Shown: one piece after another, positions 28,233-61,162 of the stretch
How positions within the stretch are numbered: position 1 is the stretch's first letter
Layout of the letters: each line of letters starts with the position of its first letter
NCBI GenBank assembly: GCA_964432435.1
Contig: CAYSNL010000001.1
Span: 10,511-74,510 of the forward strand
Reading direction: 5' to 3'
DNA from: Candidatus Woesearchaeota archaeon
GTDB taxonomy: Archaea; Nanobdellota; Nanobdellia; SCGC-AAA011-G17; JACPIM01
Length of the DNA stretch: 64,000 nt
Translations under genes and position numbers: made by a program
The notes under the pieces: generated by a model
Database searches by the model: none
Seen by the model: the letters and a program-made list of their open reading frames with translations, nothing else
Told to the model about the DNA's origin: nothing

Positions 28233-28718
28233 ATGATAAAGCACCTTAAAATAAATTATCAAATCAAAGCCCAAGAAGTTAAGCTAATAAATGAAGAAGG
28301 AGAATTCAAGGGGATACACCCAATACAGCAAGCCTTAAATATGGCTATGGCATCAGGTCTAGATTTAGTTGAAGTATCTCCAGGAACTTGTAAAATTTTA
28401 GACTATGGGAAATTCATATACGAACAAAAGAAAAAACAGACAAAGCAGAAATTGCAAGATACTTTAGAAATTAGATTGTCTCCCAATATAAATAATCATG
28501 ATGTAGAATATAAAATTAAGCATGCAAAAAGAATCCTATCCCGAGGAGACAAAATTAAACTAATTATAGTCTTTAAAGGCCGTCAAATGCAGCATACAGA
28601 TTTAGGAATTGGATTATTAAAAACTGTGACTGAAAGGCTTATAGACACAGCTATTTTAGCAGATAATCCAAAATTAGAAGGAAAATATCTAAGTGTTACA
28701 GTAGCCCCGAAAAAGTAA
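28233..28718 (+). CDS. infC: Translation initiation factor IF-3 homolog
   Basis: Full-length colinear similarity to bacterial IF3: IKAQEVKL (IRAQEVRL), GLDLVEVSP (GVDLVEISP), CKILDYGKFIYE (CRIMDYGKFLYE), FKGRQMQH (FRGREMAH), TVAPKK (VLAPKK). Confidence 0.85.
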   Translation: MIKHLKINYQIKAQEVKLINEEGEFKGIHPIQQALNMAMASGLDLVEVSPGTCKILDYGKFIYEQKKKQTKQKLQDTLEIRLSPNINNHDVEYKIKHAKRILSRGDKIKLIIVFKGRQMQHTDLGIGLLKTVTERLIDTAILADNPKLEGKYLSVTVAPKK

Positions 28719-29421: not shown

Positions 29422-29760
29422 ATGGTAATAGCATCTTGTATTTCTACAGCACGTAAATATAGTAAGTCTTCAGAGGAAAATTATAAGATAACTGCATTCC
29501 TTGTTCGTAATGGTAAGCCATTTTCTATTGCTACAAATCTTGGATGGAAACATGCTGAGGCCAGGTGCATAGACCAGGCGTCCTCAGAAAAGATAAAGAA
29601 TTCTATAATGTATGTTATTAGAATCACAAAAGAAGGATTAGGAATAGCAAAGCCTTGCAAGAAATGCCAAGGTCTAATCAAAGACACTACAATAAAGAAA
29701 GTCTATTATACAACTAACGATAATACATTAGAAACGTGGGAGTTCCATGAAACTGATTGA
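29422..29760 (+). CDS. Small cytidine/deoxycytidylate deaminase-fold protein
   Basis: HAE (WKHAEARCI) and PCxxC (AKPCKKCQGLI) zinc-binding motifs of the CDA superfamily. Confidence 0.5.
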   Translation: MVIASCISTARKYSKSSEENYKITAFLVRNGKPFSIATNLGWKHAEARCIDQASSEKIKNSIMYVIRITKEGLGIAKPCKKCQGLIKDTTIKKVYYTTNDNTLETWEFHETD

Positions 29761-34408: not shown

Positions 34409-35629
34409 ATGGAGTCATATAACTATATAGAGTCAGGAATTGTCTTTTCATTAAAAGACAGAAGATCATTAGAGAAGTTTAAATACCAAAGTAAAGATTT
34501 CTCGGTTCACCAAAAAACAATAGATTTTGTATTAAACTATTCTGAAAATTATGAGAATTTTCCAACTGAAGCTCTATTATTAGAGAAATTTCCAGACCTT
34601 GATAAAAATGCCGTTGGATTAGACATAGAATATTGCCTCCAAGAATTTGACAAACAACTAATATTCCGGAAGACAGTAGAAGTAATAAATAGCAATAAAG
34701 ACCTATTAAAATCAGAGCCTAAAAATGCCATAAAGAAAATATTGTCCGGCCTGGAAGACGTAGAATTATCATTTGATGATGACATAGAGATATATGACAA
34801 TGGGGCACTCAGTAGGTTAGAAGACTATAATAAAAAGGTAGAATTACGGAATAAGGGACTAAAAACACTAGGCATTCCAACTAGCTTCAAAACAATAAAT
34901 AGAACTACAATCGGGTGGATGAAAGGAGATTTAGTTTCTATCTTTGCTAGGCCTGGCATTGGAAAAACTTTTTTATTGATTCATGCAGCAGCAGTGGCCT
35001 ATAAATTTGGGTTCAAGGTGTTGTTCATTTCTACAGAGATGTCCAAAGCTGCTATCAATGCTAGGATGGATGTAATGCTAGGGAAGATGTATGGATATGA
35101 CTTTTCACACACGTCAATTAGGAGAGGAGAAGGCTTAGATAAAGAAAAATACAAGGAATTCCTAACAAAGCTAAATTCAAAGCGTCTAATAGTTTTAGAT
35201 AGCATAGAAAGAAATGCTATAACATATAATGGGATAGCCTCAAAAGTTAGGAAATATAAACCAGACTTGCTAGTTCTAGATGGGATACAATTAATAGCTT
35301 CTGAAAAATCATCAAATGCTGTATGGGAAAAAATGTTTAACTTATTCTATGGCATAAAGACCCTATCATTATCATCACAAATAACTAGCATTGTTTCTAC
35401 TCAAGCGAATAGAAAAGCTGCTGATTTATTTGTACCGCCCAAAGTCGCAGAAGTAGCATTTGGAGACGCTTTAATACAAGCATCAGATTATGCTATGTCT
35501 CTATGCAGAGTCAGAAATGAACCCTTACAGCTATTAGTGCAATTTCAAAAATTTAGGGATGAGGCCTTTCCCGCCGATTATGTAACAATGCATTGGGACG
35601 TAGATAAAGGAGATATAAAAGAAATATAA
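34409..35629 (+). CDS. DnaB-like replicative DNA helicase
   Basis: Walker A ARPGIGKTFLLIHAA followed by FISTEMS, as in DnaB RecA-like domain. Confidence 0.8.
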   Translation: MESYNYIESGIVFSLKDRRSLEKFKYQSKDFSVHQKTIDFVLNYSENYENFPTEALLLEKFPDLDKNAVGLDIEYCLQEFDKQLIFRKTVEVINSNKDLLKSEPKNAIKKILSGLEDVELSFDDDIEIYDNGALSRLEDYNKKVELRNKGLKTLGIPTSFKTINRTTIGWMKGDLVSIFARPGIGKTFLLIHAAAVAYKFGFKVLFISTEMSKAAINARMDVMLGKMYGYDFSHTSIRRGEGLDKEKYKEFLTKLNSKRLIVLDSIERNAITYNGIASKVRKYKPDLLVLDGIQLIASEKSSNAVWEKMFNLFYGIKTLSLSSQITSIVSTQANRKAADLFVPPKVAEVAFGDALIQASDYAMSLCRVRNEPLQLLVQFQKFRDEAFPADYVTMHWDVDKGDIKEI

Positions 35630-35846: not shown

Positions 35847-35921
35847 GGCGGGGTGGAGCAGCGGCAGCTCGTTGGGCTCATAACCCAAAGGTCGTTGGTT
35901 CGAATCCAACCCCCGTCTCCC
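35847..35921 (+). tRNA. tRNA-Met (anticodon CAU); anticodon stem has the three G-C pairs typical of initiator tRNA. A lysidine-type tRNA-Ile2 cannot be excluded
   Basis: Acceptor GGCGGGG/CCCCGTC. D-arm GAGC-AGCGGCA-GCTC. Anticodon arm TTGGG-CTCATAA-CCCAA. T-arm GTTGG-TTCGAAT-CCAAC. Confidence 0.75.
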
Positions 35922-36307
35922 AAGACAATAATTAAAACTTTAAGAGCATAAAGGAGATGTAAAATGGAAAAACAACGCAACAAAGAAGTCCGAATTTTAG
36001 ACGACAAAGAAGGTAGTGAGCTTTTCTATTCATGGATGAAAGAATTGACATTAGACCAGCAAAACTGTATAAGAATATTCCTAAGATCAAATGATTTTAA
36101 ACATGAGTAAAACATAGGATTAAAATGAAGAAACAAACAACACATCATATTCCTAATTCAATAAAAAAAGACTTACCAAATCCTAATTGCAAATGTGGTA
36201 AACCAATGCGGATTGTGATTCAACCAGGCCAACATATTCATCCATGTCCCGTTCATCCAGACAAAGCCGTGTATGGCTTAAATATAATTTATAGAAAACC
36301 ACTAAGA

Positions 36308-36385
36308 GCAGCAATAGCTCAATTAGGTAGAGCAGATGTCTTATATACATCCAGGCTGAAGGTTCAAATCCTTCTTGCTGCACCA
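36308..36385 (+). tRNA. tRNA-Ile (anticodon UAU, reads AUA), with encoded CCA
   Basis: Acceptor GCAGCAA/TTGCTGC. D-arm GCTC-AATTAGGTA-GAGC. Anticodon arm GATGT-CTTATAT-ACATC. T-arm GAAGG-TTCAAAT-CCTTC. Discriminator A then CCA. Confidence 0.7.
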
Positions 36386-36457
36386 GTTAAATTAACTATT
36401 GGAAAATGCCCCTAGAACCTCCTAGAATGAAATCTGCAGGGGTTCTTTAAAAGAGTT

Positions 36458-37342
36458 ATGGTAAACTACTTAGACTGGGTTAAAAAGATTGGAATTGATG
36501 GTCGTTTTAGTGGAAATGAATACATAGCCTGCTGCCCATTACACGGAGAGAAACATCCTAGCTTTAGTCTCAATTTACAAACAGGGTTGTGGAATTGTTT
36601 TTCTAATTGTGGTGGAGGGAATTTTGTCTCTTTAGTTCAAAAAGTATATGATGTTAGCTTATTAGAAGCAACTAAACTAATATCTGATGAGATGCCTGGA
36701 CAGATAAATTTCGACTTAGACATTGAAGAAGACAATACAAATTTAGTGCTTCCAGAGGTTAAATTCCCATTTGTTAGAAATAATTTTCCAAAATGGATAT
36801 TAGATAGAGGCTTTACCAAAGACATACTAACTAAATGGAAGTGTGGCTTTAATCCAGATAGTGGTTCATTTGTAATTTCAGTATATGATGAAAAGAAAAG
36901 ATTAGTTGGTTGGATATGCCGACAGCCTAATGGAAAAGAGCCAAAGTACATAAATTCTACGGGTCTAGAAAAATCAAAAATAGTTTTTGGCCTATATAAT
37001 ATTAAGCAGAGAAGAATAGTATGCGTAACAGAGGGGGCATTAAATACAATTTGGTTAAATCAACATGGTTTTTCTTCAGTGGCAATTTTAGGGGCAAGAC
37101 TATCAAGACGACAGGAGGAACTTTTATCAATAGCACCAATAACTGAACTAATTATTTGTTTAGACAATGATGAAGCAGGAAGAAAAGGAAGAGATGAAAT
37201 ATATGCCATAATGAAAAAATACTTTCAAATATCATTTATACAAATCCCAAATGAATACAATGATGTTCAAGACATTAAAGATCCAAAATTACTGACAAAC
37301 ATAATTAAAAACAGAACAATGTTCAAAGAAGGAGTTATTTAG
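36458..37342 (+). CDS. DnaG-like DNA primase (zinc finger + TOPRIM)
   Basis: CHC2-type zinc finger CCPLHGEKHPSFSLN near N-terminus. Confidence 0.75.
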   Translation: MVNYLDWVKKIGIDGRFSGNEYIACCPLHGEKHPSFSLNLQTGLWNCFSNCGGGNFVSLVQKVYDVSLLEATKLISDEMPGQINFDLDIEEDNTNLVLPEVKFPFVRNNFPKWILDRGFTKDILTKWKCGFNPDSGSFVISVYDEKKRLVGWICRQPNGKEPKYINSTGLEKSKIVFGLYNIKQRRIVCVTEGALNTIWLNQHGFSSVAILGARLSRRQEELLSIAPITELIICLDNDEAGRKGRDEIYAIMKKYFQISFIQIPNEYNDVQDIKDPKLLTNIIKNRTMFKEGVI

Positions 37343-38086
37343 ATGCCTGGAATTAACAGAATAAAGTCAGAAGCAGCAGACGAGAAATCACAACAATCTA
37401 GTTCAGAGCTCTGGCCAAAAGATGGAGATGAAGTATTTGGCCTAATAGTATCTGACGGGAATGATGATAATGACTTAAGATTTGATAAGTTCTATACCCA
37501 TTCTGTCCAAGGAAAAAGAGATGATGGCTCGAATCTTTGGAAGAATTCTCTCTGCCCTTCTAAAGAGGAAGAAGTATGTAAACTATGTGATAAGGATGTT
37601 AGACCAGCGAGAAAATTTGGGTTTTGGATGTATGTAAATTATATTTTACATAAAGAGAAGAAGAATGATTCCTGGGAAGCTGTGAAAAAGAGGGCCTCGG
37701 GAGAAGTACAATATAAAGAAGACATAAATGACTTTAGAGTATTTTCTCATGGGTTTGGGTCTAAAGACTATCTTTTCAATCAAGTTGTAGATATATTCAA
37801 TGAGTATGGTTCATTGAATAAATATGTTATTAGAATCAAAAGGACAGGTTCTGGTATGAAAGATACATCTTATGCTATAACCAGTACCACTAAAATATTT
37901 GAGCTGCCAAAAGAAATGCAGACTAAAGTGAAAGAATTGCCTGGGATTAGAGAATTCTTTAAAAAGCAATGGTCTCCTAGAGTTCAAACATCAGAAGACA
38001 ATAAAGATGCTAAATTATTAACTCAAGAAAATGATGAACTAGGTTTGGGAGATATAGATGAAGACCCTACAGAATCTTTGTTTTAA
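37343..38086 (+). CDS. Putative ssDNA-binding protein
   Basis: Acidic C-terminal tail ending in Phe (DELGLGDIDEDPTESLF), as in T7 gp2.5 and T4 gp32. Cys cluster CPSKEEEVCKLC. Position after primase. Confidence 0.45.
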   Translation: MPGINRIKSEAADEKSQQSSSELWPKDGDEVFGLIVSDGNDDNDLRFDKFYTHSVQGKRDDGSNLWKNSLCPSKEEEVCKLCDKDVRPARKFGFWMYVNYILHKEKKNDSWEAVKKRASGEVQYKEDINDFRVFSHGFGSKDYLFNQVVDIFNEYGSLNKYVIRIKRTGSGMKDTSYAITSTTKIFELPKEMQTKVKELPGIREFFKKQWSPRVQTSEDNKDAKLLTQENDELGLGDIDEDPTESLF

Positions 38087-38184
38087 ATTTTCTGAGTTAT
38101 AATCTAGTTCTTTAGTTCATTATTTTATAGTTTAATAGATGATTATAAGATAAGAATATTTATTTATAGTATAGTCCAAAGCAT

Positions 38185-38300
38185 AAATAGGTCCATTATG
38201 GCGCAACAGGACCTGTATTAGTATATATAAGGACCTGTATTGGACTCATTAGAGCACAAGACCTATAATGGACCTAATGGTATATAGGACCTATACTAGA
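38185..38300 (+). repeat. Iteron-like array of GGACCT-containing repeats
   Basis: GGACCTGTATT at 38209-38219 and 38231-38241; inverted copies TAGGTCCATTATGG (38188-38201) and ATAATGGACCTA (38265-38276); GGACCTATAC at 38288-38297. Flanked upstream by a very AT-rich 100 nt. Confidence 0.5.
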
Positions 38301-38313
38301 TTGAATAGAATAA

Positions 38314-39513
38314 ATGATTAATTTACTATATGATCTACAGCTAAGCGTATTAGACTCATTAGATGACGGGAATTTTATTATGACTACGGACTCTAATGTA
38401 AATGTAGCCACTGTATTGATAAAAAATTTACTTAATTTGTCTAATAACATAAAAATTTATGTTTTAGTGCCGCCAAAGTCTAAAATCCTAAACTTTAAAA
38501 ATTATTTATTAAGTGACATACAATCTTCCAATTTAGACTTTATTGAGTACAAATATTATGGAAATCCGTTCGTAGATAGGATGTCCTTTTTTAGTCGAGA
38601 TTTAATTCAATCTCTGAAGAACTTGAAAGTTGATATTGTCTATACTAATGATCCATGCAAAGTTCTGGGGTATAAGACAGTGCTATATAGTCTATTATCA
38701 AAACCGGTTCCAGTGATGTCCAGAAATCACTGGGTGACCGGAAAGACAGACTATAAGGTTCCACAATACATTGACTTTGCTCTTAGACAATGCGAAGGAG
38801 CTTTGTATTCTGATAATGCTACTTTCAATTCAAAATTTGCTGTCGATTCATTCTTATATAATGCAGAACAATACTTGAATAAAGAGACGATAGAGTCACT
38901 GTCTAAAAAATTAGATCATATAGAATGTGTAGACATAGATAAAATTGATCAATATAGAACTGATGAAAAGTTTGATGAATTTACTATGATTTTTGCAAAT
39001 AGACTTAGTTATTACACTGGATGGAAAGAGACATTAGACGCTATAAATAGACTATGGAAAAGACGAAAAGATTTTCAAGTCATAGTCCCAGACCCTGGAA
39101 ATAAATTCAAACAAGAAGACTTATTTTCTGAATATAATTTTATTAAGACAGTGAATAAAGATACTTGGACTCATGAAGATTACATAAAAACCTGTTGGAA
39201 AGTAGATGCCTGTATAGGTAACCATAAATATCCGGCTACTTGGGGCGGACTGGCTATAACAGAACCAATGGCAGCGTACAGTATTCCTATTATTCCTAAA
39301 AGACACGCTTATTTAGAAATGTTTGATTCAGACTCTCATTCTTTTTTTACTGATGAAAATGATCTTATTAGAGCCATTGAATTTTATTTAGACAATAGAG
39401 AAATTTTAGAGAAAGATAAGCTAAGAGCCAGAGCCTTTTGTGAAAAGAATCTTTCACCTCAAAAATTTGCTGAATTTATTTTAGATAAGCTTAATATGCT
39501 ATGCATATCATAA
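38314..39513 (+). CDS. GT-B (GT4-like) glycosyltransferase
   Basis: C-terminal WGGLAITEPMAAYSIPII matches the GT4 E-x7-E motif (EGFGLPVLEAMACGTPVIA type). Confidence 0.6.
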   Translation: MINLLYDLQLSVLDSLDDGNFIMTTDSNVNVATVLIKNLLNLSNNIKIYVLVPPKSKILNFKNYLLSDIQSSNLDFIEYKYYGNPFVDRMSFFSRDLIQSLKNLKVDIVYTNDPCKVLGYKTVLYSLLSKPVPVMSRNHWVTGKTDYKVPQYIDFALRQCEGALYSDNATFNSKFAVDSFLYNAEQYLNKETIESLSKKLDHIECVDIDKIDQYRTDEKFDEFTMIFANRLSYYTGWKETLDAINRLWKRRKDFQVIVPDPGNKFKQEDLFSEYNFIKTVNKDTWTHEDYIKTCWKVDACIGNHKYPATWGGLAITEPMAAYSIPIIPKRHAYLEMFDSDSHSFFTDENDLIRAIEFYLDNREILEKDKLRARAFCEKNLSPQKFAEFILDKLNMLCIS

Positions 39514-40436
39514 TAACTGGTTGTGATAAAACTGGAAAAAGTTTTTTGGCTAGAGAGTTAAGCAAACGTTTATATTTTCCAGTTATCAATAGGCTAGTTC
39601 CAAAACAAAATATTTTTATAGAATGTATTGACACGTTAACTGAATTAAAAAGTCCAATGATAATAGATAGATTTCATATAGATGAAGAAGTCTATGGACC
39701 AATAAAACGTGGAAAAAGTAGATTTGATTTTAGACAATATAAGATAATAGAGCTTTTGATGTTGATGTTAAAAACAGTTAATGTTTATTGTATAGATTCG
39801 GAAAGTTCAATTCAGTCTAGAATAAACTTATCAAAAGAAAATGAATACATATCTAGTAACGAAGTCAACATAATTTTACGGTCATATGATAATTGCTTAA
39901 GGACCAGTATTTTAACTTGGAATACGTATAAATTAGGAGATGATATTAGTCCATTAGTAAGTTTGATACAAAAACAAACACTGAATTTAAGACGCAGACT
40001 TAATTTTTTGTCCTATAGGACAATAGGAAATTTACTCGGATCTATTTTAATAGTTGGAGATAGATATGGAGACAAATTATTGCCACCTCTAATTCCATTT
40101 GGTAATAATGAGCCAGGACTAAGATTATTTTTAGCTTTAGAAAAGTCTAATCTGTCTTGGTCTGATATAATAATAACTAACTCAATTAAATTAAATAAAA
40201 ATGAAATCGGACTAGAAATTGACAATAAAAAAGCTTTAATTGAAGAATGTTCTTTGCCGAATATAAAAGTCATAGTCTGTTTGGGAAATAACGCGTATAA
40301 TAATGTATTGGCCATTAAACCAAAAATTTCGAACAATGTCATAATAAACAAAATACCTCACCCGAGTGCTTGGTTTGTCTATCAAAATAAATCCATAGAA
40401 AGTTATTCGAGACTAATAGATGCAGCAATACTTTAA
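39501..40436 (+). CDS. P-loop (deoxy)nucleotide kinase-like domain fused to a UDG-superfamily-like domain
   Basis: N-terminal IIITGCDKTGKSFLAREL Walker A. C-terminal IPHPSAWF (HPS motif B of uracil-DNA glycosylase fold) preceded by ILIVGDRYGDK in the motif A position. Confidence 0.45.
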   Translation: MHIIITGCDKTGKSFLARELSKRLYFPVINRLVPKQNIFIECIDTLTELKSPMIIDRFHIDEEVYGPIKRGKSRFDFRQYKIIELLMLMLKTVNVYCIDSESSIQSRINLSKENEYISSNEVNIILRSYDNCLRTSILTWNTYKLGDDISPLVSLIQKQTLNLRRRLNFLSYRTIGNLLGSILIVGDRYGDKLLPPLIPFGNNEPGLRLFLALEKSNLSWSDIIITNSIKLNKNEIGLEIDNKKALIEECSLPNIKVIVCLGNNAYNNVLAIKPKISNNVIINKIPHPSAWFVYQNKSIESYSRLIDAAIL

Positions 40437-42384
40437 AAAATCAATGACGTTGGTTAAGTCTAAATTAGACTTTTCAGATCTTTTAAGGTTTATTGCAAAG
40501 TCACAAAGCCTAGTCATAGATACTGAGACTTCAGGTCTAAGACTATGGCAAGATGATTTTGTGTCTGCTATTGGGATTGGAGATATAGACAGACAATTTT
40601 TTCTAGATTTGCGTCCTGATTGTTTGGATTATGAAATTAGTTTAAGTGAACTATTTGACTCTTTAAGAAAGACTAAAGTTATTATTGGCCATAATATAAA
40701 ATTTGACTTAGCCGGCCTATTAAGACTAGGATACGAGGTTCCAGATAATCAAGAAATTCATGACACAATTGTAATGGCTAGGTTGTTATCAATAGAAAGA
40801 TTTCCTAAGTTAGGTCTCACTCCTTTAATCCAACAGTACATTTCAGAGTTTGGTAGTCAATATGATATAGACTTTAAGCAGTTCTTAAAGACTAATAAAA
40901 TAAAGCTGTATTCTCAGTCCCCTAGTTTAGAGCTTGGGATCTACTGTTTAAATGATGTTTACTATACAGCTAGTCTATATGAAAAATTTAAACAATCATT
41001 AGTTTCTTTAAACTTGGTTGGACTTTGGAATCATGAGATTAAAGTAACTAAGACAGTTTGGAAAATGGAAAAACAAGGAGTTTTAATAGACAAGAAATAT
41101 TGTAGCACGGCCTTAAGTGTAATTAGCTTAAAGTCTAAGCAATTGGAGTCTGAAATTAACGAAGTGGCTGGTGAAGATGTAAACTTAGGAAGTAACAAAC
41201 AGCTATCAAAATTTTTTAGGGGTCTTAAATTAGAGGCTCCAACAAAAACTAAGAAGGGGGGCGAAAGTTGGGGAGAGGCTTCTTTAATTTTATTAGACCA
41301 TCCAGTAGCTAAGAAATTGTTATCTTGGAGAGGACTTCAAAAATTAAAGACATCATATTTTGAGACATACTTAGAAAGAGAAAGTCCATTACATTGCTCA
41401 TTTAAAAACTGGGGTACTGTTACTGGACGGTTTTCTTGTGTTGATCCTAATTTTCAACAGCTACCTAAAGAATTGACTAAAATTTTTGATGAAGATGAGA
41501 CTAAAGAACTGTCAGAATTTCAAAAGGCTGCCATAGCCTTAGTGAAGGCTGATAAAGAACGCCAAGGAGGCGGTAAACTTTTAATAAAGTCTGTGTCTTC
41601 ATATGAAGATGATATATTTGATGAAGAGAAACACATTTCTGCTAAGAGGTCTATAGTTCCTAGAGATGGAAATGTTTTTCTTAGTTTTGACTATTCTCAA
41701 ATGGAACTTAAGATTTTATTTTTTTATCTAAACAATGATGAAGCTAGACAATATTTGAGTGATCCAGACTGGGATGGGCATTCTTGGGTGGCCACTAAAA
41801 TTTGGGGGATTTCAGATAAAGATCCTAGTTTTCCAGCTTTCCGAAAATTAGCCAAGGCTATAAACTTTGGAATTATATACGGAGAAGGTGATAGACTATT
41901 AGCGGCTCAACTAGGGAAGACTGTTAACGAAGCTAAGAAGTTTAGAGAAGAGTATTATGCTAAAATTCCTGGAATAAGAGATCTGATTAATGGGATTCAT
42001 AAAAAGGTACAGACTAGAGGATATGTTTTCAATTACTTTGGACGGAGATATTATGCAGACCAAGACAGAGAATATGTTTTATTAAATTATTTAATCCAAG
42101 GAACGAGCGCTGATTTAATTAAAAATAGAATGGTGGCGATTGATAATGATTTAGAATTAAGGTCTATTGGACTAAAGCTAATCTTACAAATTCATGATGA
42201 ACTAATTTTTGAATGTCCAAAAGATAAGATTGATTATTCAGTTAAACTAGTTAAACAGATTCTAGAATTTCCAGTTCTAAAGGTTCCATTGGCCTCTAAA
42301 GCATATATTCACTATCCTAGTTTGGCTAGTAAATTTGATTATGGATTAAATTGGAGAGATAATGCTGGACTTTCAATCAATTGA
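40420..42384 (+). CDS. Family A DNA polymerase (Pol I-like) with 3'-5' exonuclease domain
   Basis: Exo I LVIDTETSGL; motif B RKLAKAINFGIIYG; motif C LQIHDELIFE. Confidence 0.9.
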   Translation: MQQYFKKSMTLVKSKLDFSDLLRFIAKSQSLVIDTETSGLRLWQDDFVSAIGIGDIDRQFFLDLRPDCLDYEISLSELFDSLRKTKVIIGHNIKFDLAGLLRLGYEVPDNQEIHDTIVMARLLSIERFPKLGLTPLIQQYISEFGSQYDIDFKQFLKTNKIKLYSQSPSLELGIYCLNDVYYTASLYEKFKQSLVSLNLVGLWNHEIKVTKTVWKMEKQGVLIDKKYCSTALSVISLKSKQLESEINEVAGEDVNLGSNKQLSKFFRGLKLEAPTKTKKGGESWGEASLILLDHPVAKKLLSWRGLQKLKTSYFETYLERESPLHCSFKNWGTVTGRFSCVDPNFQQLPKELTKIFDEDETKELSEFQKAAIALVKADKERQGGGKLLIKSVSSYEDDIFDEEKHISAKRSIVPRDGNVFLSFDYSQMELKILFFYLNNDEARQYLSDPDWDGHSWVATKIWGISDKDPSFPAFRKLAKAINFGIIYGEGDRLLAAQLGKTVNEAKKFREEYYAKIPGIRDLINGIHKKVQTRGYVFNYFGRRYYADQDREYVLLNYLIQGTSADLIKNRMVAIDNDLELRSIGLKLILQIHDELIFECPKDKIDYSVKLVKQILEFPVLKVPLASKAYIHYPSLASKFDYGLNWRDNAGLSIN

Positions 42385-43249
42385 TTCTGCCTATACTGAG
42401 ATATTAAACATCTTAGATAAAGACGGATTTTTAAATAAGAGACGAAATGGAGAAGTAAAAGAATGCTATCATTTAATGATGTGTTTGTCTAATCCAAGAC
42501 ACAGAGTAATTCAAAATTCAAGCAGAAAGATAAGTCTATCAATGTTAGTCGGAGAATTTTTTTGGATTTTGTTTGGTAGAGATGATTTGGATTTTATATC
42601 CTTCTATAATTCAAAAATGATTGAATACTCCGATAATGGAAAGTCTTTATTTGGGGCATATGGAAAGCGTTTGACTAGTCAATGGTCTGGAGTTATAGAA
42701 AGAATCTTATCTGATAAACTAACTAGACAGGCAGTATTACCGATTATAGATAAAAGTGACTCTACGGCTATGACTAAAGATTTTCCATGTAATAATCTTC
42801 TTCATTTTTGGAGTCAAGACGGCACTAGTCTAAATTTAACCGTGTATATTAGATCTCAGGATATGTTTTTAGGATTTCCGTATGATGTTTTTCATTGGAC
42901 AATGTTTTTAGAGAACATGGCTATGACTTGTAATATGAGACTTGGGAAATACTATCATATAATGCAAAATTGTCATTATTACATTAAAGACTATGAAAAA
43001 GTTCAGTTGATAAAACAAGCTAATAGTTTTGTTAGTTTACCAATGAACTCTATATTAGAAAGTTGTTTTGATAAGTCTGTAGAAAATAGACTAATAGAAT
43101 CAGAATCAAAAACTCGGCAGAACGGGGTTTATGTAAACTTATTCGATGAAAAGTCAATTTGGTCAGACTTTATAAAAATAGTTCAGCATAGAAAAAGCAA
43201 TAAAAAAGTTTCTTTATTTGATGGAGCTTTAACTAATGTCTATAGATAG
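42362..43249 (+). CDS. ThyA-family pyrimidine C5-modifying enzyme, predicted deoxycytidylate hydroxymethylase
   Basis: Aligns with thymidylate synthase: FGAYGKRLTSQW (YGKQWRAW); DFPCNNLLHFW (APCHAFFQFY, catalytic Cys retained, PCH to PCN); RSQDMFLGFPYDVFHW (RSCDVFLGLPFNIASY). The substrate-specifying Asn is replaced by Asp, as in T4 dCMP hydroxymethylase. NCHYY (DTHLY). Confidence 0.65.
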   Translation: MLDFQSIDSAYTEILNILDKDGFLNKRRNGEVKECYHLMMCLSNPRHRVIQNSSRKISLSMLVGEFFWILFGRDDLDFISFYNSKMIEYSDNGKSLFGAYGKRLTSQWSGVIERILSDKLTRQAVLPIIDKSDSTAMTKDFPCNNLLHFWSQDGTSLNLTVYIRSQDMFLGFPYDVFHWTMFLENMAMTCNMRLGKYYHIMQNCHYYIKDYEKVQLIKQANSFVSLPMNSILESCFDKSVENRLIESESKTRQNGVYVNLFDEKSIWSDFIKIVQHRKSNKKVSLFDGALTNVYR

Positions 43250-43580
43250 ATTATTCAAAGATCAAGTTAGATTTACAGATAAGATCATTAATGATTTAAG
43301 TGTGAATGTATCTAAAACTGAGTTAATAAAAGAATATTTGCTGTCTTTGCATGATGAACTATCAGAAATTCTTCATTGCACAAATTGGAAATGGCATAGA
43401 GAAGATTACGGATCAGACATAGACTATGAGAATTTATATGTGGAATTAATAGACACACAAAAGTTTTTATGGGGGCTGATGCATATTTGTGGAATGGACA
43501 TAAATAAGTTTGAAGAAGTGTATGATAAGAAAAGTAAAATTGTAGAAGAGCGTTTAATGAAATTGAAAGGGAAACAATAG
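43236..43580 (+). CDS. MazG-like all-alpha NTP pyrophosphohydrolase (candidate dCTP/dUTP-clearing enzyme)
   Basis: 114 aa all-helical with acidic cluster (ELSEILHCTNWKWHREDYGSDIDYEN...ELIDTQKFLWGL); position between the ThyA-like gene and ThyX. Confidence 0.45.
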   Translation: MSIDRLFKDQVRFTDKIINDLSVNVSKTELIKEYLLSLHDELSEILHCTNWKWHREDYGSDIDYENLYVELIDTQKFLWGLMHICGMDINKFEEVYDKKSKIVEERLMKLKGKQ

Positions 43581-44363
43581 TTGAGTCAATTAATTCTACC
43601 TAAGGTATTCATCATAGGAGAGTCTAAGATTGATTCTGTTGGTTTGCAACAATTATTAAACCATTTGAGTGTTCCTGCATGGAAATCAGATGCTGACACC
43701 GATGTAGAAAAACTTCTGGAAGTCTATGGAAGGGCTTGCTATAAGTCATTTGATGTTATTCTAAATCCTAATTTAACTCGTGTAAGAAAGCACAATGATG
43801 AATACATAAAGAACATTATAGAAAAAGGAGACGGTAGTGTATTAGAACATGGTATGATTAATTTCTTTTTTGCTGATGTGAGTAGAGTTTTTACCCATGA
43901 GTTAGTTAGGCATCGTGTCGGAACAGCCATAAGTCAAGAGAGCTTAAGATTTGTTAGATTGACAGATTTGAACTGGTACGCCCCAATTTGTATTCAAGAG
44001 GATGTTCAGGCTATGGAGATTTTTTCAAGGACACTCAATAGTTTAAGTCAACTTCAAAAAGACTTGGCAGACCTATATAATATAGATAACATGTCTTTTG
44101 AGAAGAAAAAGGAATTAACTTCAGCTTTTAGACGTCTTGCCCCTGATGGGTTAGCTACAAATATCGGGTGGTCTGCAAATATTAGAACAATTAGACATGT
44201 ATTGGAGATGAGGACTAATCCCTCAGCTGAGGAAGAAATCCGATTAGTCTTTTCTCAAGTAGGAAAACTAATGAGGGAAAGATATAAGACGTTGTTTGAT
44301 GACTATGAGACCGAGATTGTTAATGGAATTGATTGGTACAAAACTAAACATAGAAAAGTATAA
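43581..44363 (+). CDS. thyX: Flavin-dependent thymidylate synthase ThyX
   Basis: ThyX signature RHR-x7/8-S: HELVRHRVGTAISQES; TTG start. Confidence 0.8.
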   Translation: MSQLILPKVFIIGESKIDSVGLQQLLNHLSVPAWKSDADTDVEKLLEVYGRACYKSFDVILNPNLTRVRKHNDEYIKNIIEKGDGSVLEHGMINFFFADVSRVFTHELVRHRVGTAISQESLRFVRLTDLNWYAPICIQEDVQAMEIFSRTLNSLSQLQKDLADLYNIDNMSFEKKKELTSAFRRLAPDGLATNIGWSANIRTIRHVLEMRTNPSAEEEIRLVFSQVGKLMRERYKTLFDDYETEIVNGIDWYKTKHRKV

Positions 44364-44375
44364 GGAGATCTAGAA

Positions 44376-44606
44376 TTGCAAGAGCCATTAAGTTTTGAAA
44401 AAATAATTACTGACTGTAGAGAGAAGCTGACTAAACTTCAAGCCACACTCGAGAGTGTACATCAAATAATATTGACCATATCTCAGTCTTATTACTGGAC
44501 TCCTGAATGGCAAGCCAAAGAGAAACGAGCAGACGAGGATGCTCGGGCTGGAAGGTCAAAACAGTTCAAATCTGCCGAAGAATTGATCAGGGAGTTGAAG
44601 TCATAG
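44376..44606 (+). CDS. Hypothetical small protein
   Basis: 76-aa ORF with GGAGA RBS. Confidence 0.35.
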   Translation: MQEPLSFEKIITDCREKLTKLQATLESVHQIILTISQSYYWTPEWQAKEKRADEDARAGRSKQFKSAEELIRELKS

Positions 44607-44766
44607 TCTATGCCCGAGTGGACATTGGGGAGCTCAGATGGCTTCAAGGCTGATTATAAGGCAAAGCCACCGATGTTCAGCCGAGGAAATATGAATAAGG
44701 CTCAAATGATTGATGATGTAGAAGATGCTATAAGCATTCTTATATGTGCTTTATTGAGGAATAACC

Positions 44767-45246
44767 ATGGTAAATAGACCTTCATGGGATGATTACTTCT
44801 TGGGGATTGCTAAAGTTGTAAGTAGCAGGGCTTCATGCCCTAGGGCAAGCTCAGGATGTGTTTTAGTTCTAGATAAGAGAATTTTGTCTACAGGTTATAA
44901 TGGGGCTCCTGTTGGAGAAAAGACGTGTTTAGATATAGGATGTAATGTAAAAGACAGACATTGTGTCAGGGCAGTACATGGCGAAAGAAATGCCATTTTG
45001 TGGGCTGAAAAATATTTTTCAGTAAAGCAACTAAAGGAAGCGACTTTGTACGAATACTATGCAGCTCATAGCGATGAATCAGTAAAGAATTATTATCCTT
45101 CTCAAGATTCTGTAGAGTCATTAGACTTTTTTCCGTGCAAACCATGTAAAGAATTGATGTTAGATAGAAAAATCAAAGAAGTAATTTGTCAATATGGGAA
45201 TGGAATTATAAAAGTCTATAAGAACTATCATATTGGAGAAAAGTAA
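44767..45246 (+). CDS. Deoxycytidylate (dCMP) deaminase
   Basis: HGERNAILWA (HAE-type zinc ligand motif) and FPCKPCKELM (PCxxC). Confidence 0.75.
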   Translation: MVNRPSWDDYFLGIAKVVSSRASCPRASSGCVLVLDKRILSTGYNGAPVGEKTCLDIGCNVKDRHCVRAVHGERNAILWAEKYFSVKQLKEATLYEYYAAHSDESVKNYYPSQDSVESLDFFPCKPCKELMLDRKIKEVICQYGNGIIKVYKNYHIGEK

Positions 45247-55802: not shown

Positions 55803-56315
55803 ATGTCTGACGATTACACAGAAGATCAAAGAAAATTCGCTTTAGATTTATACCTAGACGGCATGACAGCCGTGAAAATTGCTCGTAGGTTTTCTAGTGA
55901 GTATAATTCTTTGATTAGGGCATCAACAATTACTCAATGGATCAATAAATATGAATGGAAGAATATTAGAGCAGAATTGCGTAATCAAGCTATTGCAGAA
56001 ATAATGCAAAGAAACAAAAGCTCTCTTATTAAGACTTCTGAAGAGCATGCTAAGACATACCGAAAATTGTGGAAAAAGGGGGAGGAAGCCCTAGAAAGAG
56101 AAAAAAGTCCTGCTAAAATTCTTGACCCAAGCGATGCTATAAAAGCAATAGATGCGGGAATACAGGGAGAGAGGAAAGTAATTTTAGGCATTGTTAATAT
56201 GAAATTTGTTCAGGATGTCTTAGGGGTAATTGTAGAAGAAGTTAACGATCAAACTGTATTAAACAAAATAGCTATTAGGCTGAAAAAACTAGCTTCAGAA
56301 ATGATGGAAGGTTAA
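55803..56315 (+). CDS. Putative terminase small subunit (HTH DNA-binding)
   Basis: HTH-like N-terminus (DLYLDGMTAVKIARRF) and position directly upstream of the large terminase gene. Confidence 0.4.
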   Translation: MSDDYTEDQRKFALDLYLDGMTAVKIARRFSSEYNSLIRASTITQWINKYEWKNIRAELRNQAIAEIMQRNKSSLIKTSEEHAKTYRKLWKKGEEALEREKSPAKILDPSDAIKAIDAGIQGERKVILGIVNMKFVQDVLGVIVEEVNDQTVLNKIAIRLKKLASEMMEG

Positions 56316-56495
56316 AGAAAGTGAGAGTCACTGATTTGGATTTAGAACAATTTATTGCACAGTGCAAGTCTTGTAAGGATACTTTTGTAATTGATTATGT
56401 TAAGAGATATAAATATTTTGAAAGTCAATTAGCTTTTACAGTAAGAGATGGTCAATTTAGACATAGATGTGGTGGATTGATTAGGATTTTTACAA

Positions 56496-58121
56496 GTGTC
56501 CCAATCTCTTTTGACATACAAACAAGCACTAACTAATCTAGCTGATAGTTTATTAACTAGAGACGAAAAGTCCATCAAAATAGGTGGATTTTATGAATTT
56601 GTAAGGGATATTTGGTCTAAAAGTTATGAGCATCCTGAGCGTTTCAAGATGTTCCACATCGAAGTAATATGCCATGATGTAGAAGAAGCATTAGCTACTG
56701 GTAAAAATTATGTTTGTGTTCTTCCTCGAGGGTTTTTAAAGTCAACGGTGCCTGGATATGCTTTTTGTATTTGGCGTTTATTGAAAATGGGAAATTCAGA
56801 CAGTACAATTCTTTATACATCATTTTCAGATGGGATGAGTCAATACCATATATCTGAAATGAAGAAACATATAAGGCGTAATCCAATTCTTTCTGAATGG
56901 ATGATAGACAGGAGTCCAAATGCTGACTTTTCATTTAGATATTCTGTAAATGGATTCCAAAAGAATATTTTACATGGTGGGGTTTTGTCATTCAAAAGAG
57001 GGACCCACGTAGATGGGGCAGTGGTGGCGGATGATCTCTTACAGGACCCAGATAATCCAGCCAGGCCTACAGAGATATTAAAGGTTGAAGAATTTTTCTT
57101 TTCAGAGACAATGTATATTCCTAATCCAGGAGTGCCAGTCTTTGTATTAGGGACTCCCTTATTACCGGACGATCTATTATCAAAGCTTAAAAAAGATGAT
57201 CGTTTTTTGTATCGTTTTATGCCGGCCTTAGACCCAATTCCAGGAAGAAGAGTTTTAGCCCCAGAAATTAGAGATGAAGCCCAGTTGTTAAGAGAAAAAG
57301 CTGCAAGACCTCACGCTTTTGCAGCAGAAATGATGCTATCTCCTATGTCTTCTGTGAAGGGATATTTTACTGATACTGATATTAGTAGATGTGAAAATAA
57401 AGATTTAGCATCATTTGATCCATACAAAGAATGGGATTTTAACAGTGAGTTTACAGTTGCTGGGTTTGATGTGGGAAAAAAGAGGCACCCCTCTCATCTA
57501 GCTGTTTATGCAAGTAAAGGAGGTGTACTGAAACAAGTTCATCAAGTATTTCTAGATGGATGGGATTATAATATTCAAAAAGAATATTTAAATACAGTAG
57601 CCAAAAATTTTGCTCTTGATGTAGGATACTATGACAGCACCAGAGGAGAATTAGACGATAGGGGGCTAGATTCTAGGTGGAAGTCATTAAATTTTACCTT
57701 GAAAGACAAGAGAAAAATGGCCCAGGTGTTTGAAGAATTTGTTCAATCAGGAAATTTATCTCTTATTGTTGATGAACGTCAAAAATCGCAAATATTGGCA
57801 GTGGATAATGACTTAGATGCAGCAGAGAGTCCGCTCGGGCATGGAGATTCATTTTGGTCTAATGCTTTAGCATTATTAGCATACAAAGACAAGACAACAG
57901 TTGGGACGCAAGATGTTGGAAATGTTCAGGATATATTTGGAAACGATAAGACTAAAGAAAATATTAATTTTAAAGAATTTGTGCAACCAATAAATTTAGG
58001 CACAGGATGCCCTAATTGTAAAGAATTTGTAGGCTGGATAGAAGAAAGAAAATTATGCTTGATTTGCCAGCATAGATGTAATGATAATTGTATTCATACT
58101 GGAGAGAAAAATGGGGGCTAA
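56496..58121 (+). CDS. Terminase large subunit
   Basis: Deviant Walker A of terminases (VCVLPRGFLKSTV), acidic nuclease-like C-terminal half; GTG start. Confidence 0.55.
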   Translation: MSQSLLTYKQALTNLADSLLTRDEKSIKIGGFYEFVRDIWSKSYEHPERFKMFHIEVICHDVEEALATGKNYVCVLPRGFLKSTVPGYAFCIWRLLKMGNSDSTILYTSFSDGMSQYHISEMKKHIRRNPILSEWMIDRSPNADFSFRYSVNGFQKNILHGGVLSFKRGTHVDGAVVADDLLQDPDNPARPTEILKVEEFFFSETMYIPNPGVPVFVLGTPLLPDDLLSKLKKDDRFLYRFMPALDPIPGRRVLAPEIRDEAQLLREKAARPHAFAAEMMLSPMSSVKGYFTDTDISRCENKDLASFDPYKEWDFNSEFTVAGFDVGKKRHPSHLAVYASKGGVLKQVHQVFLDGWDYNIQKEYLNTVAKNFALDVGYYDSTRGELDDRGLDSRWKSLNFTLKDKRKMAQVFEEFVQSGNLSLIVDERQKSQILAVDNDLDAAESPLGHGDSFWSNALALLAYKDKTTVGTQDVGNVQDIFGNDKTKENINFKEFVQPINLGTGCPNCKEFVGWIEERKLCLICQHRCNDNCIHTGEKNGG

Positions 58122-60354
58122 TTTAACACCACAAGCAAAATATATTTTAGAGCAAAGATATTTAAGACGAGATGAGAATGGAGACATTATTGAAACTCCA
58201 GAACAATTGTTTGAACGAGTGGCAAGGGCAGTCTCTAATGGAGAGCCAATAGAGAGTGACAGACAAATATATTTTCAAAGATTTTATGACTTAATGACTT
58301 CATTGAAATTTTTGCCTAATTCTCCTACATTGGTAAATGCTGGAGTAGAAGGAAAAGGTTGCCTAAGCGCATGTTTTGTTTGCTCCCCCGAAGAAGACAC
58401 GATGGAGTCAATTTTACAAACACAGAAAGATTGGGGGATGATAGAGAAATGGGGTGGCGGAGTAGGAATAGGCTTAAGCATTATTAGGCCAAAAGGTGAC
58501 AGAATCAGTACCACTCACGGAAAGGCATTAGGGCCAGTAGCAATAATGCATATGTTGTCTACAAATGCAAAGCATATAACACAGGGCAGCTTTCGTCTCG
58601 GGGCCCATATGGCTCAATTAGCTGTTTCTCACAATGATATTTTTGAGTTTATCCACTGTAAAGACAAAGATGATACATTAGAGAATTTCAATATTAGTGT
58701 ACAGATAACTGATGAGTTTATGCAGGCCTTAGAAAAAGGGGAGGACTGGCATTTAGTGAATTCTAAAAACAATGAAGTAATGCAGACAATTCCAGCCAAA
58801 CAATTATGGCAGGAAATATGCGGGTCTGCTTGGAAAACAGGAGATCCAGGAGTAGTATTCATAGACCGGGTATGGGAAACAGCCCCAAATCCACAATTAG
58901 GGGGGATTCAGACGAGCAATCCCTGCGGGGAGGAATTTCTTGAAAATTACTCAAATTGTTGTCTCGGTTCCATAGATTTAAGTAAATTTGTTATTGAGGG
59001 AAAGTTTGACTTTGAGGATTTTGATAGAGTAGTTTATTTAGCAATTAGATTTTTAAATGATGTAATTGAAGTTAATACATTCCCAATTCCCCATTTACGT
59101 GAAATGAACTTGAAGACTAGGCGTATTGGTTTGGGAGTAATGGGGTTTGCCGATGCATTGATAAAATTAGGGCTGCCATATGACAGCGAAGCTGCATTAG
59201 GAATGGCTAGATTGATAGGAAAAAAACTAAAAAATTCAGCATGGTTAGAATCTTTTAGATTGGCTGATGAAAGAGGGGCATATTCTGAGTATAAAAATTC
59301 TAGCCTCAAGTATGAATTTAAAAATAAGCCAGTTAGAAATTCTAGTGTCATAACCATAGCTCCTACAGGCACGATTTCGAGATTGGCTAATTGTTCCAGC
59401 GGCATAGAGCCGTGTTTTGATTTAGCTTATTGGTCTAATATTTTATGGACAGATCATGATGGGAAAAGCACTAAATTTCTTGATGTCCCATCTAGTGTGA
59501 AAGACGTACTAGAACGAGATTGGGGGGCGGAGAAAGTTAATGAAATTTTAATAGCTATTGCTAATAATCCAGAGAAAACCCGAGCAATTCTGAAAGCATA
59601 TTATGGAATTAATGCAGACATATTTAGAACAGCAATGGAAATATCTCCTGAATGGCATGTAAAAATGCAGGCGGCATGGCAGGAGAATGTAACAAATTCT
59701 GTATCCAAGACAATAAATCTTCCAGAAGATGCTACTGTAAATGATGTATCCGAGGCTTTTAAATTAGCTTGGGAATTGAAGTGCAAAGCTGTGACTGTAT
59801 ATAGGGACAAATCAAAGTCTATGCAAGTATTAAATAAGGCAGAAGGACTTAGTGAATTAGTAAAAGTTATAGACAATATAAAGCTAGTTGTCAAAGACAG
59901 GCCTGCGGTAATGACTGGAGTTACTGAAAAAGTAAAGACTGGGCACGGAAATGCTTATGTAACAATCAATTTTGAAGGTACAGACCCATTTGAATTATTT
60001 ACTACGTTGGGGAAAGCTGGGGGCTGTGACTCGGCAAATTTAGAAGCAATATCTAGATTAGTATCATTAGCTTTTAGATATGGAATTGATACAAAAGAAG
60101 TAATTGCACAGCTAAAAGGCATTACTTGCTGCCCAGTATGGAATGAAGGCACAATGATAAAATCAACGGCAGATGGAATAGCATATGCAATATCTAAAAA
60201 TGTATTAAAAGAGGATGAAATAAGTTATAATAATAAAATAGGTGGGTCTATAGAGAAAAATGGGCATTTAGTATGCATACAGTGTGGAGGAGAATTGATT
60301 CGTAAAGAAGGTTGCATTGTTTGTAAAGATTGCTCTTGGACTCGTTGTGAGTAA
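58111..60354 (+). CDS. nrdJ: Ribonucleotide reductase catalytic subunit (class II-like, adenosylcobalamin-type) with C-terminal zinc ribbon
   Basis: Active-site loop SNPCGEEFL; N-terminal LEQRYL. C-terminal CIQCGGEL...CIVCKDC zinc ribbon. Start moved to ATG at 58111 with GGAGAG RBS. Confidence 0.8.
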   Translation: MGANLTPQAKYILEQRYLRRDENGDIIETPEQLFERVARAVSNGEPIESDRQIYFQRFYDLMTSLKFLPNSPTLVNAGVEGKGCLSACFVCSPEEDTMESILQTQKDWGMIEKWGGGVGIGLSIIRPKGDRISTTHGKALGPVAIMHMLSTNAKHITQGSFRLGAHMAQLAVSHNDIFEFIHCKDKDDTLENFNISVQITDEFMQALEKGEDWHLVNSKNNEVMQTIPAKQLWQEICGSAWKTGDPGVVFIDRVWETAPNPQLGGIQTSNPCGEEFLENYSNCCLGSIDLSKFVIEGKFDFEDFDRVVYLAIRFLNDVIEVNTFPIPHLREMNLKTRRIGLGVMGFADALIKLGLPYDSEAALGMARLIGKKLKNSAWLESFRLADERGAYSEYKNSSLKYEFKNKPVRNSSVITIAPTGTISRLANCSSGIEPCFDLAYWSNILWTDHDGKSTKFLDVPSSVKDVLERDWGAEKVNEILIAIANNPEKTRAILKAYYGINADIFRTAMEISPEWHVKMQAAWQENVTNSVSKTINLPEDATVNDVSEAFKLAWELKCKAVTVYRDKSKSMQVLNKAEGLSELVKVIDNIKLVVKDRPAVMTGVTEKVKTGHGNAYVTINFEGTDPFELFTTLGKAGGCDSANLEAISRLVSLAFRYGIDTKEVIAQLKGITCCPVWNEGTMIKSTADGIAYAISKNVLKEDEISYNNKIGGSIEKNGHLVCIQCGGELIRKEGCIVCKDCSWTRCE

Positions 60355-60365
60355 AAGGAGATGAA

Positions 60366-60632
60366 ATGGACGGATTACAAATAGGTAGAATAGTTCATTA
60401 TGTATTATGGCCTCATGAAACAAATCATGGTTTTCCAGAACATAAGGCAGCTATAATAACTAATCTTTTTGGCAATGATGGTCTAGCTAATTTAACTGTT
60501 TTTATGGATTGGTCAAATGATAAAAAAGACTCTCCTGGAGATGCTATGAGTGGCCCATTATGTTGGGCAACTTCCAGACCATATAGTGAAGAGCCAAAAC
60601 CTGGAACTTGGCATTGGCCAGAGAAAGTGTAG
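60366..60632 (+). CDS. Hypothetical protein
   Basis: 88-aa ORF with AGGAG RBS. Confidence 0.4.
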   Translation: MDGLQIGRIVHYVLWPHETNHGFPEHKAAIITNLFGNDGLANLTVFMDWSNDKKDSPGDAMSGPLCWATSRPYSEEPKPGTWHWPEKV

Positions 60633-60641
60633 AGGAGATAT

Positions 60642-61148
60642 ATGCCAATAGGAGATAATTTAAGTCGGGTAGACCAGCAATATATAGCAAAAAAAGATGA
60701 TAAGAATACTTGGCGTATTTTGAATTTGTGGCACCCAGAATTAAAGAATTTATCCTCTGGTGAAGATGATGTTCCAGACAATCATCCTGCGGTAACTATA
60801 TTGACAGAGGGGGCATTTTTGGCTCTAGTAAAATCAGCAGTACAGGAAGGGGTAATTCAAAATGCTGTAATGTCTGCTGAAGTGGCACATGATAATTGTG
60901 TTAAAGGGAAAGACCTTGATATATTGTATGATAAAATAGGTAGGGCTGAGGTTGAAATAAATTTTCTTACTAAAAGTGTAACAGAAAAATCTGCGGCTAT
61001 TAAATTATTGGAGGATGAAAATTCATTATTAAAACAAGAAAAGCCTAGATCAGAAGCATTTGAGACTACAAAGTTAGTGGTAGACTCTCTAGTACGATTA
61101 GCCGGGATGAGTAATTTAAAAGATAAGGATGAAAGGAATAAGACTTAA
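60642..61148 (+). CDS. Hypothetical coiled-coil protein
   Basis: 168-aa ORF. Confidence 0.45.
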   Translation: MPIGDNLSRVDQQYIAKKDDKNTWRILNLWHPELKNLSSGEDDVPDNHPAVTILTEGAFLALVKSAVQEGVIQNAVMSAEVAHDNCVKGKDLDILYDKIGRAEVEINFLTKSVTEKSAAIKLLEDENSLLKQEKPRSEAFETTKLVVDSLVRLAGMSNLKDKDERNKT

Positions 61149-61162
61149 TATAGAGAAATAAT

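Follow-up and report, generated by a model that had tools for sequence, protein, structure and literature searches.

The 64-kb window analysed here (the whole stretch of DNA that was examined) is part of a ~93-kb phage-like contig, Logan assembly contig SRR12113430_915. At 38087-38313 of this window, a 227-bp gap between the gene for a gp2.5-like single-stranded DNA-binding protein (SSB) and a glycosyltransferase (GT) gene contains an ordered, mirror-image set of short repeats. The set occurs once in the genome, next to the least stable DNA of that genome and in the middle of the replication genes. We interpret it as a single-copy ordered array of about eight putative binding sites for one protein, with the core GGACC and the extended form GGACCT-RTA. 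The best single reading of the gap, to which we assign a probability of roughly 0.4, is that it may serve as a phage origin of (theta-type or early) replication, consisting of iterons and a DNA-unwinding element. Whole-genome statements rest on 82.6 kb (88%) of the ~93-kb phage genome, rebuilt from overlapping loci; the overall GC content is ~35%, and the plus strand carries all genes.

The repeat array and the AT-rich tract

The hexamer GGACCT is not generally enriched: the 64-kb window has eight copies, and shuffled sequences have 14.4 ± 4.0. Five of the eight lie within 104 bp, at 38189-38292, in a gap whose composition predicts 0.02 copies. The search for the motif elsewhere in the genome that the initial annotation had called for gave 11 copies in 82.6 kb, including these five, and no second cluster. 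None of 2,000,000 random placements put five of 11 copies into 104 bp (analytic estimate, ~6e-9). When all hexamer clusters of the genome are ranked, the GGACCT array comes first and the next ones are coding repeats.

Four of the exact copies are direct (38209, 38231, 38270 and 38287) and one is inverted (38189-38194). Near-copies are AGACCT at 38259 and GGACTC at 38242, both direct, and GGACT-A at 38172-38177, inverted. This gives a total of eight sites in 38172-38292, five exact and three near, where at least three clustered copies suffice for iterons. The earlier count of five direct and two inverted copies of GGACCT holds with near-copies included, not for exact copies; the two exact 11-mers reported 22 nt apart are present. 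The elements of the gap are:

38073-38173, no strand: AT-rich tract, candidate DNA-unwinding element, the least stable 100-bp window in 82.6 kb
38167-38199, minus strand: left arm, consisting of ATAATGGACCTA (38199-38188), a 10-nt spacer TTTATGCTTT and GGAC-TATACTA (38177-38167)
38209-38219, plus strand: central direct repeat A, exact 11-mer GGACCTGTATT, read from the sequence
38231-38241, plus strand: central direct repeat B, exact 11-mer GGACCTGTATT, 22 nt after A, read from the sequence
38242-38256, plus strand: near-copy GGACTC and the 14-mer GACTCATTAGAGCA (38243-38256), overlapping a sigma70-like -35 element
38259-38264, plus strand: near-copy AGACCT, directly 5' of a TATAAT hexamer
38265-38298, plus strand: right arm, consisting of ATAATGGACCTA (38265-38276), a 10-nt spacer ATGGTATATA and GGACCTATACTA (38287-38298)

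The two arms are mirror images with the consensus ATAATGGACCTA-N10-GGAC(C)TATACTA. Local alignment of the reverse complement of the left arm to the right arm gives a score of 43, which none of 2000 shuffles matched. The two sequences noted as a near-palindromic pair form an inverted repeat that is perfect over 12 nt, TAGGTCCATTAT (38188-38199) and ATAATGGACCTA (38265-38276). Between the arms, box 1 is identical at 12/12 positions and box 2 at 11/12, the 10-nt spacer at just 3/10. Because the boxes are kept and the spacer is random, selection appears to have acted on recognition boxes, not on base pairing, and the box-spacer-box layout points to protein binding rather than to a hairpin. The region between the arms holds both 11-mers, GGACTC and AGACCT. 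The centres of successive sites are 17, 20, 22, 11, 17, 11 and 17 bp apart; at spacings of 20, 22 and 11 bp, four consecutive sites share a helical face, and the 17-bp intervals in and beside the arms are out of phase.

As initially annotated, the gap begins with ~100 nt of AT-rich DNA, 38087-38187 being 81% A+T. A nearest-neighbour stability scan ranks the AT tract first in 82.6 kb at window sizes of 50, 100 and 150 bp. The 50-bp minimum is at 38119-38169, and the 100-bp window has -1.008 kcal/mol per bp compared with a genome mean of -1.248 ± 0.069, ~3.5 standard deviations above the mean. The sole hairpin of the tract is no better than those of shuffles (z -0.06). By predicted stability, a putative AT-rich unwinding element of the kind found at iteron origins adjoins the array, and on sequence criteria the gap conforms to the generic definition of iterons plus an unwinding element.

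Gene context

The genes that flank the gap are:

37343-38086, plus strand: gp2.5-like SSB, from matches to the PHROG SSB families 1192/1607 and alignment with relatives
38314-39513, plus strand: GT, from a Pfam Glycos_transf_1 match under the curated cut-off

Alignment with relatives also shows that the SSB has an acidic C-terminal tail with LF as its last residues. The GT has 34 homologues at E <= 1e-5 and a source name 'glycosyltransferase'. Its N-terminus, MxxLxDLQLSVLDSLDDG, is kept in a 48%-identical homologue; this conservation backs the GT start at 38314, and hence the 227-bp gap is real. Between 33.9 and 45.6 kb it is the sole sizeable gap.

Upstream lie genes for an SNF2 helicase, a DnaB-like helicase (34409-35629) and a DnaG-like primase (36458-37342), followed by the SSB gene, so that the position directly 3' of the helicase, primase and SSB genes noted at the outset is correct. 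The DnaB-like helicase is of DnaB_C type, has 406 aa and is encoded 2.5 kb upstream of the gap. The GT is the first gene of a block for DNA modification, polymerase and nucleotide metabolism that comprises GT, P-loop kinase fused to a uracil-DNA glycosylase (UDG)-superfamily domain, family A DNA polymerase, ThyA-like, MazG-like and ThyX. The location of the gap between the helicase-primase-SSB genes and the polymerase block favours an origin.

The block from 38314 to 44363, together with 29422-29760 and 44767-45246, is probably a thymidine-hypermodification and nucleotide-metabolism module, comprising the GT, the P-loop kinase-UDG fusion, PolA, the ThyA-like protein (possibly a dUMP hydroxymethylase), the MazG-like protein, ThyX and two dCMP-deaminase-like genes. 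The set of GT, UDG-like, polymerase and ThyA-like genes recurs, in varying order, in unrelated phages with a family B polymerase (loci L010, L011 and L140).

A possible mechanism of initiation

For an origin at this site we infer protein binding, the identity of the binder, melting of the tract and a start of replication at the gap. A phage protein would coat the array, with its two mirror-image two-box arms and its two 11-mers spaced 22 nt apart. The coated array would bend or wrap the DNA and so favour opening of the neighbouring AT tract at 38073-38173. The DnaB-like helicase, DnaG-like primase, gp2.5-like SSB and PolA, all encoded around the gap, would then assemble there. The arms contain putative sigma70-like promoters, one directed into the AT tract; these could help by transcriptional activation, as at the T7 and lambda origins, and could also drive the downstream operon.

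Several results weigh against this interpretation. Pfam and PHROG scans of the neighbouring proteins found no Rep-, O- or RepA_N-type domain, and the neighbours of no assigned function have no Pfam or PHROG match. Two of the open reading frames (ORFs), one of 144 aa that is conserved in the relatives L222 and L223 (see below) and one of 153 aa, match no family; their single-sequence AlphaFold models are unusable (predicted local distance difference test scores of 61 and 52). By Pfam, neither the helicase nor the primase carries an obvious additional DNA-binding domain. At 38000-38400 there is neither a DnaA box (<=1 mismatch) nor an IHF consensus, host-factor sites that a phage origin need not have. 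The array has the AT tract on one side, outside the left arm, unlike the origins of staphylococcal pathogenicity islands (SaPIs), and the 65-bp centre between the arms is only 57% A+T. A good promoter buried among the sites would be equally well explained by an operator.

Nucleotide skew adds a further point on this side. GC skew at third codon positions steps from ~0.14 to ~0.33 near 40.4 kb (interval ~39500-45000), and the log-likelihood ratio (LLR) of this change point, 28.6 (23.6 at the gap), is above those of all 1000 gene-order permutations. At four-fold degenerate sites there is no significant boundary (best LLR 6.8 against a 95th percentile of 7.2; 4.9 at the gap). Since the step vanishes there, we attribute it to differences between gene classes in codon and amino-acid usage and reject it as a replication signal.

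The relatives do not share the array. A protein search returned a single SSB homologue, in locus L009, which is ~55-60% identical. The equivalent gap of L009 is 121 bp long and has no GGACCT array. It shares GACTCAATAGAGCA with our gap at 13/14 positions, the counterpart here being the 14-mer GACTCATTAGAGCA (38243-38256); 5 of 300 shuffles reach 13/14. The nearest PolA relatives, L222 and L223, are 47-49% identical and syntenic. L222 has the order SSB, 124-bp gap, PolA, and no such repeats; in L223 the SSB gene overlaps a kinase-GT-UDG module and the gap is absent. More distant SSB relatives (~36-44% identity) were collected from 80 metagenome and four IMG/VR loci, and in most of the ~60 where the next gene is readable this gene, usually PolA, abuts or overlaps the SSB gene. 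Neither megablast of 36000-40500 nor blastn of 38150-38313 found a match in phage and plasmid records. In GTDB representative genomes neither the arm pattern nor SSB relatives were found; in IMG/VR, patterns with several GGACCT copies matched nothing but collagen-like GGA-CCT (Gly-Pro) coding repeats, which are uninformative. As far as these comparisons go, the array is lineage-specific; with the lineage poorly sampled, conservation neither supports nor refutes a function.

The candidate replication origin put forward in the initial annotation has thus gained a unique array, the least stable DNA of the genome and a replication-block context, and stands without a recognised initiator or origin-binding protein, DnaA boxes, a skew boundary at four-fold sites or a corresponding cluster in the relatives compared.

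Comparison with known origins

In SaPI origins, 6-12 iterons of five or six nucleotides lie just 3' of the replication genes, at least two per side in opposite directions, and an AT-rich segment is associated with them (PMC9371898). The present gap is similar in having ~8 hexamer-core sites 3' of the helicase-primase-SSB genes, two per arm and opposed. It differs in that the AT region of SaPIs is central, between the opposed iterons, whereas here the centre is 57% A+T and the AT tract lateral. Furthermore, SaPIs use a self-loading Rep helicase that carries a winged helix at its C-terminus, and the helicase encoded 2.5 kb away from this gap is DnaB-like and has no obvious extra domain. With an AT region that is not central and no winged-helix Rep, the gap is not an origin of SaPI type.

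Every T7 origin contains a promoter (PMC8373140). The primary T7 origin (phi1.1A/1.1B plus an AT-rich region) invites comparison because the present phage also has a gp2.5-like SSB with an acidic, aromatic-ended tail, a family A polymerase, and a DnaB-family helicase and a primase, and because a promoter-like element, a 9/12 consensus match only, is aimed into the AT-rich tract. Among the large proteins scanned here, however, there is no single-subunit RNA polymerase, only a protein with sigma70 region 2. T7 origins have no iteron array, and the promoters of this gap are no more than matches to a sigma70-like consensus. Without a phage RNA polymerase among the proteins found, assignment to the T7 type fails.

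At ori-lambda, P1 oriR, RK2 and pPS10, direct sites about two helical turns apart lie beside a lateral AT-rich unwinding element; the P1 and F iterons also bury a promoter. The gap resembles these lambda-type and theta-plasmid origins in its directly repeated sites about two turns apart and its lateral AT tract. Its units, with 6-12 conserved bp, are short and point in both directions, in contrast to uniform direct iterons of 17-22 bp, no gene for an O- or RepA-type initiator adjoins or contains the site, and there are no DnaA boxes. In phage P4, an octamer core repeat in both orientations at ori and crr lies beside an AT-rich stretch and is bound by the replication protein. The short core repeat in both orientations beside AT-rich DNA is common to P4 and the present gap. 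P4 needs crr as a second cluster, whereas no second GGACCT cluster exists in 82.6 kb here, and the P4 alpha protein combines primase, helicase and DNA-binding domains in one chain, a fusion not seen in this phage.

Promoter-like sites and alternative explanations

A consensus scan, on which all three entries rest, found these promoter-like elements within the array:

38241-38269, plus strand: sigma70-like promoter TGGACT-17-TATAAT, 10/12, facing the GT gene
38269-38297, plus strand: weaker promoter-like element TGGACC-17-TATACT, 9/12, within the right arm
38168-38195, minus strand: mirror promoter-like element TGGACC-16-TATACT, 9/12, in the left arm, aimed into the AT tract

Promoter-like matches are not enriched over shuffles of the region (8 compared with 6.2 ± 2.8), and we therefore treat these sites as leads only. 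They nevertheless bear on a regulatory alternative that the initial annotation had already mentioned, namely that the repeats bind a phage regulator. The GGACC sites would be operators of a regulated promoter for the GT-led operon (DNA modification, PolA and nucleotide metabolism). A phage repressor or activator would bind them cooperatively and block or recruit the host RNA polymerase at TGGACT-17-TATAAT, timing the middle genes, and intergenic or UP-element DNA of an ordinary kind would make up the AT tract. We consider this possible, if on balance unlikely. In its favour, the best sigma70-like match, which has a perfect TATAAT, is occupied by GGACC-type sites at the -35 (38242), in the spacer (38259), just past the -10 (38270) and in the early transcribed region near +10 to +15 (38287). 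Sites thus overlap a promoter that faces a gene, the promoter being a consensus match only. A promoter is to be expected at 38087-38313 because there is no other sizeable gap in 33.9-45.6 kb. The phage has a sigma-like protein of its own, and inspection by eye shows similar TTGnnn-N17-18-TATAnn layouts in gaps elsewhere in the genome. Precedents exist: in the operator of the phage P2 C repressor, a promoter element lies between two direct half-sites with a spacing of 22 bp, and parC of plasmid R1 has arrays of 11-bp repeats flanking a promoter. Like P2 O1/O2 and R1 ParR-parC, the gap has direct repeats, phased at 11 or 22 bp, beside or across a core promoter; it differs in having more sites than P2 and mirror arms, and no gene for a cognate repressor or for ParR/ParM was found. 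Eight sites over 125 bp are many for a simple operator, which would also leave the adjoining least stable DNA of the genome unexplained. No helix-turn-helix (HTH) or ribbon-helix-helix regulator was detected in the ~75 of ~93 window ORFs scanned, save for the sigma-like protein and a weak TerS-like HTH, and many small ORFs of the window match no family. In other phages, GT-UDG-like modules continue from the preceding gene without a gap or regulatory region. Operator and origin are not mutually exclusive; plasmid iterons often bury a promoter. We also considered GGACCT as a general promoter motif of the phage sigma-like protein, and rejected it because the motif forms a single-copy cluster and is not dispersed, with only one other intergenic copy.

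A nucleic-acid structure would account for the mirror symmetry differently. The arms could pair as a long imperfect hairpin, either in the SSB-GT transcript or in single-stranded DNA. Such a hairpin would serve as a site of RNase III-type processing or of stability, as an attenuator or as a signal for single-strand initiation; in T7-like phages, intergenic hairpins are the points at which polycistronic mRNA is processed. Folding energies look supportive, at -61.5 kcal/mol (z = -4.9) for 38087-38313 as RNA, z = -4.8 for 38160-38305 as DNA and z = -5.4 for the minus strand as RNA, with no shuffle as good. But such z-scores follow automatically from any inverted arrangement of binding sites and are no evidence for an RNA element. 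The arm spacers, identical at 3/10 positions, would remain unpaired in a 10 x 10 internal loop, which again argues for selection on the boxes and not on a stem, and a hairpin needs neither the four central direct copies nor exact 11-mers. Rfam gave no match and no intrinsic terminator was found in the gap. We consider a structural role improbable. Only slightly less so is a scar with little or no function, left when the modification module was inserted between SSB and PolA, the repeats being by-products of recombination or slippage. The SSB gene usually abuts PolA in distant relatives, so that the gap, together with the GT and kinase-UDG genes, is inserted DNA. Within the gap, the 17-mer GTATTGGACTCATTAGA (38237-38253), matches GT coding sequence at 38347-38363 (SVLDSL motif) at 16/17 positions and resembles a local duplication; it may be that or a microhomology used in recombination. 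Decay or slippage does not produce eight copies in a defined order and orientation, with mirror symmetry and with 12-mers and 11-mers that are perfect. Tandem Repeats Finder found no tandem array in the gap, and the 14-mer is common to the equivalent gap of L009 despite an SSB protein identity of 55-60%. In other phages an overlapping dUTPase_2 gene always precedes the GT homologue; a decayed dUTPase_2 gene was rejected for the gap, as tblastn with the dUTPase_2 proteins that precede GT elsewhere gave no match in it. We give very little credence to other single-copy cis sites, that is, a pac site, an attP with arm-type integrase sites or a partition centromere. Such sites do combine clustered short repeats in both orientations with, often, AT-rich DNA. 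Against them, the TerS-like (weak match), TerL and portal genes are at 55.8-63.1 kb, ~18-25 kb from the gap, no integrase, ParA, ParB or ParM was met in the family scans of the window or in the precomputed Pfam annotations of its flanks, and the gap lies mid-way in a block of replication and nucleotide-metabolism genes.

A more speculative proposal, which we consider a long shot, is that the array combines origin and switch. The mirror arms with their promoter-like elements would load the replisome both ways and gate the thymidine-hypermodification operon, and the site would stay readable after thymidine modification because the GGACC core has only one T per strand, in a genome that is AT-rich otherwise. 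Such an element, in a phage binned with Candidatus Daviesbacteria, would be of a kind not yet described.

The phage genome

The identical sequence is deposited at NCBI inside a metagenome-assembled genome of Candidatus Daviesbacteria, a member of the candidate phyla radiation (CPR), with the proteins MBI2020107 and MBI2020108 and locus tags from HYS94_01685 onward. With a portal, TerL, a replication module and a head-closure-like match, its gene content is that of a phage; the deposited contig either belongs to a phage of CPR bacteria or was binned wrongly. L007 and L008, two short contigs from further runs of this project, have ends that match window positions 38213 and 38291, inside the repeat array; given the contig sizes, breaks there are statistically unremarkable.

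A 154-aa protein encoded at 27491-27955 matches sigma-70 region 2 (Pfam, E 1.2e-7) and a PHROG sigma factor family, and is probably a phage sigma factor. A 22-nt sequence, AATAAAAGTGTAAAGTAGAAAA, occurs in three copies (two exact, one with three mismatches) at 5890-5911, 5951-5972 and 6848-6869 of locus L137. These lie outside the window, ~2.7-3.6 kb before its start and directly 5' of the Shine-Dalgarno/ATG of genes that are probably late; the repeat is a candidate late promoter or leader element and perhaps the target of the phage sigma-like protein.

A phage homologue of IF3 is encoded at 28233-28718, with IF3_N (E 3.6e-23) and IF3_C (E 1e-25) domains. Four tRNA genes, for His, Leu(UAA), Met and Ile(UAU), are at 26458-26662, 35847-35920 and 36308-36385. 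The tRNA-Ile gene lies inside a 96-aa ORF (36125-36415), which is for that reason probably not a gene; in L009, a tRNA-like sequence was seen, by eye only, upstream of the primase gene.

The packaging block at 55803-63082 has metabolism genes interspersed. It includes the TerS-like gene (weak Terminase_5/HTH match), TerL (56496-58121), the portal (61163-63082) and a ribonucleotide reductase with a TSCPD domain (58081-60354). Just past the end of the window are a NUMOD3 endonuclease-like gene and a gene for a protein with an ADP-ribosyltransferase domain. At 14089-14560, within a 503-aa ORF (13135-14646), clusters of the GC-rich repeats CCACCAGC and GCCCCACC raise the local GC content to 47% and probably encode a repetitive structural protein, possibly rich in Pro and Gly.

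Significance

To our knowledge, no phage origin has been mapped for the CPR host group. If the gap at 38087-38313 is an origin, it would provide a 230-bp handle for building a replicon and for tracking replication in an uncultivated ~93-kb phage lineage, as well as for retrieving the initiator protein by DNA-affinity methods. If it is an operator, it would mark where the operon for thymidine hypermodification and polymerase is controlled. The architecture is familiar in both cases, and the value of the site would be practical rather than conceptual.

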